64,000 nucleotides of DNA, taken from NCBI GenBank assembly GCA_038141355.1, contig JAYQHX010000002.1:165073-229072 (forward strand), read 5' to 3'. A model generated the notes under the pieces. It saw nothing but the letters and a program-made list of their open reading frames with translations. It was not told where the DNA came from and searched no databases. Source of the DNA: Methanobacteriota archaeon. Lineage in GTDB: Archaea > Thermoplasmatota > Poseidoniia > Poseidoniales > Poseidoniaceae. The translations under genes and the position numbers were made by a program. Below, in pieces: positions 20,524 through 24,172 of this stretch. The stretch's first letter is position 1. The number at the start of each line of letters is the position of its first letter.

Positions 20524-20790
20524 ATGTCGGATGAAAATGAACAAACCCGAACTTTTGAGGACGTAGTCCAAGAAAAGCAGGATGCTATAGAAGCACAGTT
20601 CCGAAAGATATCCAGAGGAAGCTGGGCAAGAATTATTCGAATGGCTAGAAAGCCTACTCCTCAAGAATTCAAGCAAACATCGATCATATGTGGTATCGGA
20701 TTGTTTGTGTTAGGTTTTATTGGATTTGTAATGTTGGTTGTCATGGACAATTTCATTCCATGGATCATTCATGATGTCTTCGGCATCTAA
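20524..20790 (+). CDS. secE: protein translocase subunit SecE/Sec61-gamma
   Basis: 88 aa. RKPTPQEFKQ precedes a single C-terminal TM helix, and the gene sits in the conserved position upstream of spt5. Confidence 0.75.
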   Translation: MSDENEQTRTFEDVVQEKQDAIEAQFRKISRGSWARIIRMARKPTPQEFKQTSIICGIGLFVLGFIGFVMLVVMDNFIPWIIHDVFGI

Positions 20791-20807: not shown

Positions 20808-21722
20808 ATGACAGACGCTTTTATCGCATTTGTACGCCACGAAGAAGAACTATTACTGCTCAAAAGGTCAGACTCAGATTCAGATTCTCCAGCCCTATGG
20901 GATGGAGTATTTGGAATCGGCAACGAGGAAGGGGATGTTCTCAACAGAGTTTCTGAATGTACTGGAATTCCTGTAGAAGACCTTGAGTATGTAAGAAATG
21001 GACCTGCTATCGGTATCGACATGGGTAATAGGCTCCAAGATATCGAGCCATGTTTGGTAGTCTCTACAAGCAAAGAAGTCACACCATCTGGCAGATACGT
21101 AGAACACACTTGGGTTGACCCTGGTGAAATCCAAAACTTCAACTGTGTCTTCGCAGATTTAGATTTCGAAAACAGCGAAAAATTGTTCAGAGAAATGTAC
21201 GGCTCTGTAGGTGCTTACCTTTTCATCGTAAAAACTGCGATTGGTTCTGAAAAGAGAGTCGCTGATGAAATGCAAGCAAGACTAATGGGGTCAGGTTCTC
21301 TGTCAAGAATCGCTGATGATATCTTTGCAATTCTTCATCCAACAGGTATGAGAGGATACGTGATGGTTGAATCTAATGCTCTGCACCATGTCGAGAAGTT
21401 GATTGGAAGATCTGGTGGAAGAGACCCAAGCGCAAGAAGAGGTCTAAATCAAACACCATTGAAGAATGCAAAAAATGTGCTTCCTGGTGAAGCACCTCTC
21501 AAAGATATACTACCTTACTTGGAGCCAAAGGCTGTTACCAGTGGTATCGAAGTTGGATGTATTGTTGAAATCGTCACTGGCGCATTCAAGGGTGAAAAGG
21601 CTCGTGTCACACTCGTTTCTGACACTAAGGAAGAAGTTAGCATGGAGTTATATGACCAACCAATTCCAATGACATTGAAGATGCGTGGAGACCACGTCAG
21701 AGTTCTTGAGAGAGTTGAATAA
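20808..21722 (+). CDS. spt5: transcription elongation factor Spt5 (NusG) with ~135-aa N-terminal Nudix-like extension
   Basis: The C-terminal ~165 aa contain NGN (YLFIVKTAIGSEKRVADEM…GYVMVE) and KOW (GCIVEIVTGAFKGEKARV) domains. The N-terminal part is in the same uninterrupted frame and resembles a degenerate Nudix fold. Confidence 0.8.
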   Translation: MTDAFIAFVRHEEELLLLKRSDSDSDSPALWDGVFGIGNEEGDVLNRVSECTGIPVEDLEYVRNGPAIGIDMGNRLQDIEPCLVVSTSKEVTPSGRYVEHTWVDPGEIQNFNCVFADLDFENSEKLFREMYGSVGAYLFIVKTAIGSEKRVADEMQARLMGSGSLSRIADDIFAILHPTGMRGYVMVESNALHHVEKLIGRSGGRDPSARRGLNQTPLKNAKNVLPGEAPLKDILPYLEPKAVTSGIEVGCIVEIVTGAFKGEKARVTLVSDTKEEVSMELYDQPIPMTLKMRGDHVRVLERVE

Positions 21723-21834
21723 TCAAATTGTTGAGGTGAGATGCTCCTAAAAATCGTACCAGATTACACACGGTCGCGATTAAATAGGGGTGGCAAGTCG
21801 GCAACATGCTCACGTCCGTGAGATTCAGAGGTGA

Positions 21835-22122
21835 ATGAACATGCCAAAACCTTGGACCAGCGAGTTAATCAAAAAAGCTCTAGGCGTCGCTAAGTGTAAC
21901 GGTAGTTTAGAAGCCGCAACTGAGGATTTGAGCCTTGAAAAAGCAATGGACGTCGCTCGCCAGAAGGCTGGAGACGGACACTTGACTGGAGCAGACCTGA
22001 AAGCACAAACACGCGAAGTAATAGGAACATGTGTTGCTATGCGTGTCAAGATTGAAGGACTCTGGGCAAAGGATGCTTTGACCACAATTAGTAATGGAGA
22101 TTGGGACGAACGTTTTGCTTGA
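21835..22122 (+). CDS. rpl11: 50S ribosomal protein L11, C-terminal (rRNA-binding) domain only
   Basis: PKPWTSELIKKALGV…EVIGTCVAMRVKIEG…GDWDERF aligns with the second half of archaeal L11 (PPTxxLIKK…EVLGTCxSMGVTVEG…GxYDE). The probable start is the ATG at 21841, 6 nt after GAGGTGA. No N-terminal domain is encoded. Confidence 0.75.
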   Translation: MNMPKPWTSELIKKALGVAKCNGSLEAATEDLSLEKAMDVARQKAGDGHLTGADLKAQTREVIGTCVAMRVKIEGLWAKDALTTISNGDWDERFA

Positions 22123-22185
22123 ATTGAATATCACGGACCGCGGGAGAGGGACTTTGTCCTTCGCAGACCGAAGGGGTGACGAAAA

Positions 22186-22830
22186 ATGGAAGAAAAAATA
22201 TCTGAAGCGATAAAGAGCGCAATCGAAAGCGCTCCTGAAAGAAAATTCGTAGAATCTTTAGACATTGCATTCACAATCAAGGATGTTGACCTAAAGAATC
22301 CAAACAACCGTATCCAAGAAGAAATCCGATTACCATCTGGTAGAGGAAAGGATGTAAAAATCGCAATGTTTGCTGCTTCTGAAGCAGCACAAAAAGCAAA
22401 GGCTGCAGGAATTCATGTAATCGATCCTGCAGAAATTGAAGAATTAGGAAAGAACAAAGCTGCTGCAAAGAAGATTGCAAATAACTTCGATTTCTTCCTC
22501 TCCGAAGTTCCTCACATGGGAACTGTCGGTAGGTTCCTCGGTGTAGTTCTAGGTCCTCGTGGTAAAATGCCAAGGCCAGTCCCTCCAGTTGTTGACCCAG
22601 CTGTTATTGCAGCAGGATTGAAATCAACCACTGTTGTAAAGTCTAGAGATATAATCACATTCCATGCAACCTTCGGTACAAGAGAGCAATCTCATGAAGA
22701 ATTACTCAAAAACGCAATGGAAGTTTACAACCGTGTGACTTCTAAACTAGAGAGAGGAATTGGAAACGTCCGCTCTCTATATGTCAAGACAACCATGGGT
22801 CCAGCAAGCAGAATCGAGGTGATTAATTGA
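22186..22830 (+). CDS. rpl1: 50S ribosomal protein L1
   Basis: 214 aa. FVESLDIAF…EIRLPSGRGKDVKIAMFA…GPRGKMP are typical L1 blocks, and the synteny fits. Confidence 0.92.
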   Translation: MEEKISEAIKSAIESAPERKFVESLDIAFTIKDVDLKNPNNRIQEEIRLPSGRGKDVKIAMFAASEAAQKAKAAGIHVIDPAEIEELGKNKAAAKKIANNFDFFLSEVPHMGTVGRFLGVVLGPRGKMPRPVPPVVDPAVIAAGLKSTTVVKSRDIITFHATFGTREQSHEELLKNAMEVYNRVTSKLERGIGNVRSLYVKTTMGPASRIEVIN

Positions 22831-23869: not shown

Positions 23870-24172
23870 ATGGAGTACGTATACGCTGCAATGCTTTTGC
23901 ACTCTGCTGAGAAAGAAATTAACGACGACGCTGTATCTGCAGTCCTAAAGGCTGCTGGTGTAGATGTAGATGACGCCCGCGTGAAAGCACTAGTTGCTTC
24001 TCTGAGCGGTGTTGACATCGCTGAAGCAATGACAACCGCCGTCGCTGCGCCTGCTGCCGCTGCTGCCCCAGCCGCTGCTGCTTCCGCTGACGCTGCCCCT
24101 GCAGCTGCGGAAGAAGAAGAGGAAGAGGAAGAAGAAGGCGGTTTCGAAGGCCTAGGTTCTCTCTTTGGCTGA
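23870..24172 (+). CDS. rpl12: 50S ribosomal stalk protein L12/P1
   Basis: [17 protein letters not shown]…, an Ala/Pro hinge and the tail [20 protein letters not shown]. Confidence 0.92.

Follow-up and report, generated by a model that had tools for sequence, protein, structure and literature searches.

A ribosomal protein uL11 consisting of the C-terminal domain alone in the marine archaeal order Poseidoniales

Ribosomal protein uL11 is universally conserved, and its N-terminal domain, the target of thiopeptide antibiotics, changes position with each translational GTPase. The question raised by the locus described here is whether a gene that stands at the L11 position of an archaeal ribosomal-protein cluster, and encodes only 93 residues, is a genuine uL11 deprived of this domain, or whether it reflects a faulty assembly, a split gene or a decaying remnant. 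The window, i.e. the whole stretch of 64,000 nucleotides that was analyzed (contig JAYQHX010000002.1, family Poseidoniaceae of the order Poseidoniales, also called Marine Group II), contains the archaeal gene order secE–spt5–L11–L1–P0–P1 on the forward strand, and the same order is met at a locus of another family of the order (f3, L039). The string begins with secE (20524–20790; Pfam SecE, 22.4 bits) and continues with spt5 (20808–21722, stop codon TAA at 21720–21722), whose product carries the Spt5-NGN domain at residues 138–199 and a KOW domain at 252–278. The short gene, hereafter uL11C (21841–22122), comes next and comprises only the uL11 C-terminal rRNA-binding domain and the archaeal C-terminal helix; it is followed by rpl1 (uL1; 22186–22830; Pfam Ribosomal_L1, 156.7 bits), by rplP0, encoding the stalk base protein uL10/P0 (22827–23840; Pfam L10, RL10P_insert and 60s acidic tail), and by rplP1, encoding the stalk protein P1 or aL12 (23870–24172; Pfam Ribosomal_60s, 63.1 bits).

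The open reading frame at this position extends from 21835 to 22122 and encodes 95 amino acids, or 93 when read from the ATG at 21841 (MPKPWTSELIKK...). The alignment of 26 orthologous loci identifies ATG 21841 as the conserved start, while ATG 21835, immediately adjacent to the Shine-Dalgarno box, lacks such conservation; this box, GAGGTGA at 21828–21834, lies 6 nt upstream of ATG 21841. Between the spt5 stop and the two ATG codons there are 112 nt (ATG 21835) and 118 nt (ATG 21841). The initial annotation had placed the reading frame, the GAGGTGA box, the 112-nt gap and a small upstream reading frame at coordinates that all proved correct, and it had proposed that the gene encodes the C-terminal domain only, that it starts at the inter-domain hinge, that it has its own translation signal, and that the gap behind spt5 is too short to hold the N-terminal domain. 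The last two of these claims hold on the positions just given, and the first two are borne out by the profile, structural and alignment data that follow.

In the 93-aa protein, the L11 RNA-binding domain PF00298 is matched with 39.1 bits (cut-off 21.4), residues 3–70 corresponding to positions 2–68 of the 69 in the profile, and Pfam gives no match to the N-terminal domain PF03946. The archaeal L11 equivalog profile NF002232 scores 58.6 bits, below its cut-off of 162, and only positions 71–158 of 164 are covered, whereas the full-length protein of the sister family f4 reaches 177.6 bits. The short proteins are named hypothetical in NCBI records and L11 by JGI, and the sub-cut-off NF002232 score is the likely explanation for the NCBI label. 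Alignment to proteins of known structure covers residues 70–158 of Pyrococcus furiosus L11 and 67–156 of Haloarcula marismortui L11, and the full-length f4 L11 is aligned over its residues 69–156; since all these ranges begin at about residue 67–70, uL11C must begin at the inter-domain linker, with TPP aligned with MPKPW. An AlphaFold (AF2) model derived from 24 orthologues (pLDDT 89.8, pTM 0.80) has, as its top Foldseek match in the PDB, the L11 of Methanocaldococcus jannaschii in the P-stalk base complex (5d8h_C; TMq 0.87, rmsd 1.5 Å, 91 columns), and the other strong matches are all uL11. The three-helix, homeodomain-like fold of the C-terminal domain is thus met in the model and in the Foldseek comparison. 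The 93-aa protein is the uL11 C-terminal domain in sequence and in predicted fold, a true uL11 orthologue without two of the features that define the family, the N-terminal domain and a passing equivalog score.

A detached N-terminal domain, or a complete rpl11, might nevertheless be encoded elsewhere, and neither was found in the searches of this genome. A six-frame search of the 2.46-Mb assembly with PF03946 gave no match at E ≤ 10, in a procedure that recovered the domain in 14/14 control genomes; tblastn with the full-length f4 L11 matched only over residues 69–156 of the query, at this same locus, and tblastn with the f4 N-terminal domain alone returned noise (best E = 2). The genome is about 80% complete and the window lies on a 1.53-Mb contig, a gap that is covered by single-contig relatives. 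Together with 40 relatives, 24 of them congeneric, it makes up an order sample of 41 genomes from three families and 11 genera, in none of which the PF03946 cut-off was exceeded, the best chance match reaching 14.6 bits in an unrelated frame. PF00298 was found in 34 of the 41, and in 16/16 of those of high quality, at one locus per genome and in open frames of 92–127 aa. The same gene was recovered in 80 related loci, including the Marine Group II chromosome of 2012 (CM001443.1). Close and distant genomes alike have the same short gene, without the extra 150–200 bp that would have overturned the initial annotation, as a full-length rpl11 elsewhere would also have done.

Across the roughly 100 Poseidoniales genomes sampled, single-contig ones included, the N-terminal domain is absent. 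In a class-wide sample of 121 genomes it was present only in families f4 and f5, outside the order, with 19 matches above the Pfam cut-off and one cut by a contig end, most of them in frames of 157–179 aa; the listed genomes without a match all belong to the window's own family, among them the single-contig G044, and the domain was not found either in the single-contig genome G039 of family f3. In the phylum sample, 227/301 high-quality genomes contain the domain, with listed scores of about 75–98 bits, and the number of genera devoid of it (20/130) fits the genera of Poseidoniales. That the N-domain-less genomes of the phylum are all Poseidoniales is inferred from these genus counts. As the domain is present in f4, f5 and most of the phylum and absent in the sampled Poseidoniales, its loss maps to the stem of this order. 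The intergenic region differs as well: at the sister-family locus L045 the full-length L11 gene overlaps the spt5 stop, and in Poseidoniales a spacer of about 100 nt with a promoter separates spt5 and uL11C.

The shortened gene is maintained by selection. Its dN/dS has a median of 0.09 and a maximum of 0.20 (148 usable pairs from 26 orthologues), the 26 orthologues share the same Met start and are free of stops and frameshifts, and 19 positions do not vary in 24 sequences from the whole order; strong purifying selection acts on uL11C throughout Poseidoniales. The domain has also diverged, with PF00298 scores of 30–46 bits in Poseidoniales vs 61 for the f4 protein, and two order-specific, invariant replacements stand out: KCNGS instead of KGSG in the RNA-binding loop, which is 3 residues shorter (residues 18–22), and SMRV instead of SMG(V/I/L), a Gly to Arg change, at residues 66–69. 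These differences leave room for rRNA contacts unlike those of canonical L11, and they could represent an adjustment to life without the N-terminal domain, although both suggestions remain tentative. Taken as a whole, gene 21841–22122 is very likely a genuine and functional uL11, cut to its C-terminal domain in the ancestor of Poseidoniales; its expression and its incorporation into the ribosome are inferred.

The presumed target was compared by aligning the 23S region corresponding to Escherichia coli 1051–1108 from six Poseidoniales and ten other genomes of the class or phylum. Outside the window's own genome, Poseidoniales have an H43/H44 of the usual length, and the H43/H44 sequence is conserved in the six genomes, A1067 and A1095 included. 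The sole order-specific base in this sample is U1083G, at the H43/H44 junction, with G in 6/6 Poseidoniales (L131, L141–L145), and nine U and one C in the outgroups. A U-A pair replacing G-C in H44 is common to Poseidoniales and to the sole other genome of the class that was aligned (family f5). The docking site of uL11C on 23S thus appears intact as far as the conserved sequence goes, and binding itself is inferred. As a separate observation, the 23S rRNA of the window's own genome is without five bases, AUCCU (1077–1081), in the GTPase-associated centre (C2:1050942–1051082, equivalent to L131 3150–3290, minus strand); these bases are present in five other Poseidoniales and in four same-genus genomes, whose sequence is otherwise nearly identical there, and the gap is likely to be an assembly error or a strain-specific change.

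The spacer ahead of uL11C contains a predicted promoter (21773–21807, forward strand), made up of GC-rich BRE-like bases, a TATA box ATTAAATA (21779–21786) and an invariant GTCGGC (21797–21802). In 16 same-genus loci this block hardly varies, including those preceded by a different gene, and the roughly 65 nt upstream of uL11C are more conserved than coding DNA, also where the upstream gene is not spt5. Across genera of the family, the conserved elements are GCGATTAWATA (BRE/TATA-like), GTCGG(C) 10 nt downstream, a small hairpin and the Shine-Dalgarno sequence. A genome-wide scan found the arrangement TATA-N10-GTCGG also ahead of the L40e, S15 and S6e genes, 4/9 genome matches being ribosomal-protein genes; TTAAATA/N10/GTCGG(C) sites were recorded at C2:1276940–1276962 and near C2 positions 1077698 and 491748, all on the minus strand. 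In the L40e, S15 and S6e genes the ATG lies 4–6 nt past the motif, which implies leaderless mRNAs. Whether TTAAATA-N10-GTCGG(C) is a promoter element specific to ribosomal-protein genes is no more than a possibility. The conserved block and the arrangement shared with ribosomal-protein genes lead to its reading as a promoter of the ribosomal-protein type, with transcription inferred, without measurement, to start near 21808 and a leader of 33 nt. This predicted 5′UTR (21808–21840, forward strand) contains a hairpin, with 21809–21813 paired with 21818–21822, and the GAGGTGA box; GAGGTG is invariant within the genus, and the hairpin stem changes partly by compensation among genera. The minimum free energy fold of the leader (−8.7 kcal/mol) contains this hairpin and is not better than that of shuffled sequences (z −0.79).

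The alternative that the upstream block imitates the L11 site on 23S and serves autoregulation was considered and is not supported: local alignment of the leader with the genome's own 23S rRNA is no better than with shuffles, 14/200 of which reach the score, no Rfam family matches the leader or the upstream block, and the same TATA-N10-GTCGG precedes the leaderless L40e, S15 and S6e genes, which disfavors a mimic and points to a promoter element. One claim of the initial annotation fails here. A 26-codon mini-ORF (21741–21821, forward strand), preceded by a GAGGTGA at 21733–21739 with a spacing of only 1 nt, had been regarded as a possible remnant of the N-terminal domain on account of its GGKSAT string; it overlies the promoter and is not conserved as a reading frame. 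Only the two nearest relatives (L051 and L052) share its ATG and first 12 or so codons, its 5′ half is replaced by unrelated sequence at other same-genus loci, and its GGK codons are replaced in other genera. The conservation of the underlying bases is due to the promoter that they form (TATA box and GTCGGC) and not to a coding frame, and the mini-ORF is rejected as a remnant.

Compared with the canonical archaeal uL11, represented by M. jannaschii (5D8H/5COL), P. furiosus (4V6U chain BH) and H. marismortui (1S72 chain I), all of which combine PF03946 and PF00298, uL11C has in common the sequence of the C-terminal domain and C-terminal helix (E 1e-8 to 1e-6), the position between spt5 and rpl1 and the H43/H44 target, but it is devoid of the whole N-terminal domain of about 65 residues; unlike the f4 gene, which overlaps the spt5 stop, it has its own predicted promoter. 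A functional parallel comes from engineered bacterial fragments, L11-C76 and L11ctd (PDB 1HC8, 1Y39), which also consist of the C-terminal domain alone, match the uL11C model with TMt 0.78–0.85, and were used for the NMR and crystal structures of the complex of L11 with 58-nt rRNA. In full-length L11, the C-terminal domain is mainly responsible for binding and stabilizing the 58-nt GTPase-centre rRNA (PMC1802607), and the fragments demonstrate that it suffices for both in vitro (PMC1802607). These fragments are laboratory truncations of bacterial proteins, whereas uL11C is natural, is the sole uL11 of a free-living order and keeps the archaeal helix. The N-terminal domain is mobile, shifting its position with EF-G, EF-Tu and release factors, and together with the rRNA it makes up the thiostrepton pocket (PMC1802607; PMC3505967); its role in factor cycling is conserved in all domains of life (PMC1802607, PMC3505967). 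Thiostrepton also binds the archaeal L11–rRNA site, as seen in structure 5D8H.

Translation without the uL11 N-terminal domain also proceeds in thiopeptide-selected rplK mutants of Bacillus subtilis and Staphylococcus aureus and in yeast without RPL12A/B. In B. subtilis, the loss of L11 is viable but costly and confers complete thiopeptide resistance (PMC11731312), loss of L11 or of N-domain residues abolishing thiopeptide sensitivity (PMC11731312), and yeast without uL11 is viable with very slow growth (PMC2175356). These mutants grow slowly and are drug-selected, while the truncation in Poseidoniales is fixed in an abundant order and its C-terminal domain is under purifying selection. By analogy with the engineered fragments, uL11C would act at the base of the stalk as an rRNA-folding clamp, binding 23S H43/H44 and stabilizing the folded GTPase-associated centre. 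Recruitment and activation of aEF1A and aEF2 would rest on the P0–P1 stalk and the rRNA alone, and the ribosome would be without the protein half of the thiostrepton/thiopeptide pocket.

A profile search of 1.84 billion representative proteins, followed by examination of gene context, revealed other short L11-like proteins outside this order. In four contigs, a C-domain-only uL11 gene comes directly after spt5, with no room for the N-terminal domain or no N-domain-like frame in the spacer. They are an Aigarchaeota MAG (L154, 3001–3303; 100 aa, 48-nt spacer, contig up to 733 kb); L152 (4001–4489), in a secE–spt5–L11C context, where a C-terminal domain with a Lys/Glu-rich tail overlaps the spt5 stop; L164 (2213–2500), with the order secE–spt5–L11C–L1–P0–P1 and a 12-nt spacer; and a GC-rich archaeal contig (L153, 3001–3285), with a 253-nt spacer without an N-domain-like frame. 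The close homologues of the L152 protein are two-domain L11s of about 230 aa, several of them assigned by NCBI to Woesearchaeota or Nanoarchaeota (DPANN-type). The C-terminal domains of these four are less diverged (51–74 bits) than those of Poseidoniales, and they come from single, unrelated contigs whose genome completeness is unknown; they suggest recurrent, independent loss of the N-terminal domain, with the reservation that the domain is not excluded elsewhere in those genomes. Two further candidates were discarded, P0128 because of its position at a contig edge, and P0108 (L165 180–650) because a separate 62-aa PF03946 gene abuts its 93-aa C-domain gene. L165 may contain a truly split uL11, or else its assembly has a frameshift or stop error, and the recovery of its N-domain gene indicates that a detached N-terminal domain is detectable by such searches.

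Several explanations other than a genuine loss have to be weighed. An artefact of assembly or annotation, in which about 200 bp of N-domain DNA were deleted or collapsed or the start was mis-set, could appeal to local oddities of this assembly, such as the 5-nt gap in 23S relative to all relatives; it is all but excluded by the occurrence of the same short gene, start and promoter block in more than 100 independent assemblies, CM001443.1 and single-contig genomes included, and by more than 80 protein clusters of 85–98 aa from many metagenomes. Decay of uL11C into a non-functional remnant, leaving a ribosome without uL11, is conceivable since B. subtilis and yeast can do without uL11, though at a cost (PMC11731312, PMC2175356), yet a dN/dS of 0.09, the 19 residues invariant in 24 sequences, the lack of frame breaks and the conserved promoter and Shine-Dalgarno sequence leave next to no room for it. 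The third possibility, a split gene whose diverged N-terminal domain is encoded elsewhere and joins the ribosome in trans, gains some support from the existence of a split arrangement in nature or in assemblies (L165) and from the unusual divergence of the Poseidoniales C-terminal domain itself. Matches to the N-terminal domain, however, reach 75–98 bits elsewhere in the phylum, and the chance matches in Poseidoniales stay below 15 bits in unrelated, non-syntenic frames; no N-terminal domain emerged at E ≤ 10 in the genome under study or by tblastn with the f4 sequence, and in L165 a freestanding N-domain gene was picked up without difficulty, so that this explanation is very improbable.

The replacement of the N-terminal domain, by an unrelated lineage-specific protein or by an extension of a neighbor (P0, aEF2 or the rRNA) that fills its place, is harder to dismiss. 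Compensation is plausible given that the factor-cycling role of the domain is universally conserved (PMC1802607, PMC3505967), and the locus shows another lineage-specific change in the N-terminal extension of Spt5. Against this, the Pfam regions of P0 are no more than the customary three (L10, RL10P insertion and acidic tail), with no addition resembling the L11 N-terminal domain, and no candidate has been identified; H43/H44 is of the usual length in other Poseidoniales and shows a single order-specific base in the sequences compared, and other archaeal contigs carry the short gene without the features specific to Poseidoniales. Replacement is accordingly considered unlikely, although it cannot be excluded by sequence. 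A bolder reading, which is merely possible, is that the N-terminal domain, commonly regarded as a universal switch of the GTPase-associated centre, is dispensable in nature without a substitute and has been discarded repeatedly in archaea, namely in Poseidoniales, in an Aigarchaeota MAG, in two DPANN-like contigs and in one more unidentified archaeon, the loss in Poseidoniales having perhaps been fixed through removal of the protein half of the thiopeptide pocket; the same reading, equally conjectural, would add intrinsic resistance to antibiotics of co-occurring marine bacteria, with the KCNGS loop and SMR as compensating changes.

On the reading of a genuine loss, Marine Group II plankton probably translate without the half of uL11 that touches the translation factors, the functional consequence being inferred. 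In the open-access literature searched, which is incomplete for subscription journals, no natural C-domain-only uL11 was found, either for Marine Group II or elsewhere. A globally abundant, free-living order without the N-terminal domain is a natural experiment on what this domain is needed for, and Poseidoniales give structural and biochemical work access to a GTPase-associated centre of simpler make-up; they are also predicted, by inference, to be insensitive to compounds of the thiostrepton class. At a practical level, marker sets that contain PF03946 or full-length L11 models would under-call Marine Group II genomes, and annotation pipelines label a real uL11 of this group as a hypothetical protein.

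Two other features of the locus deserve mention. The spacer between uL11C and rpl1 (22123–22185, 63 nt) has no TATA box and contains a predicted stem-loop with a GGGACUUUGUCC core. An L1 autoregulatory site exists in Methanococcus, and the spacer could be such a site, mimicking the L1 site, but neither its folding energy (z −1.0) nor its similarity to 23S rRNA is significant, and the possibility is not supported by either. The Spt5 protein encoded upstream (304 aa) bears an N-terminal extension of about 135 aa ahead of the NGN domain (window 20808–21215), a segment without any Pfam match at E ≤ 1. A family f3 genome has the extension as well (316 aa; L039 1797–2747), and the Spt5 of the sister family f4, with 184 aa, is without it; next to the truncation of uL11, the extension is thus a further lineage-specific change at this locus.
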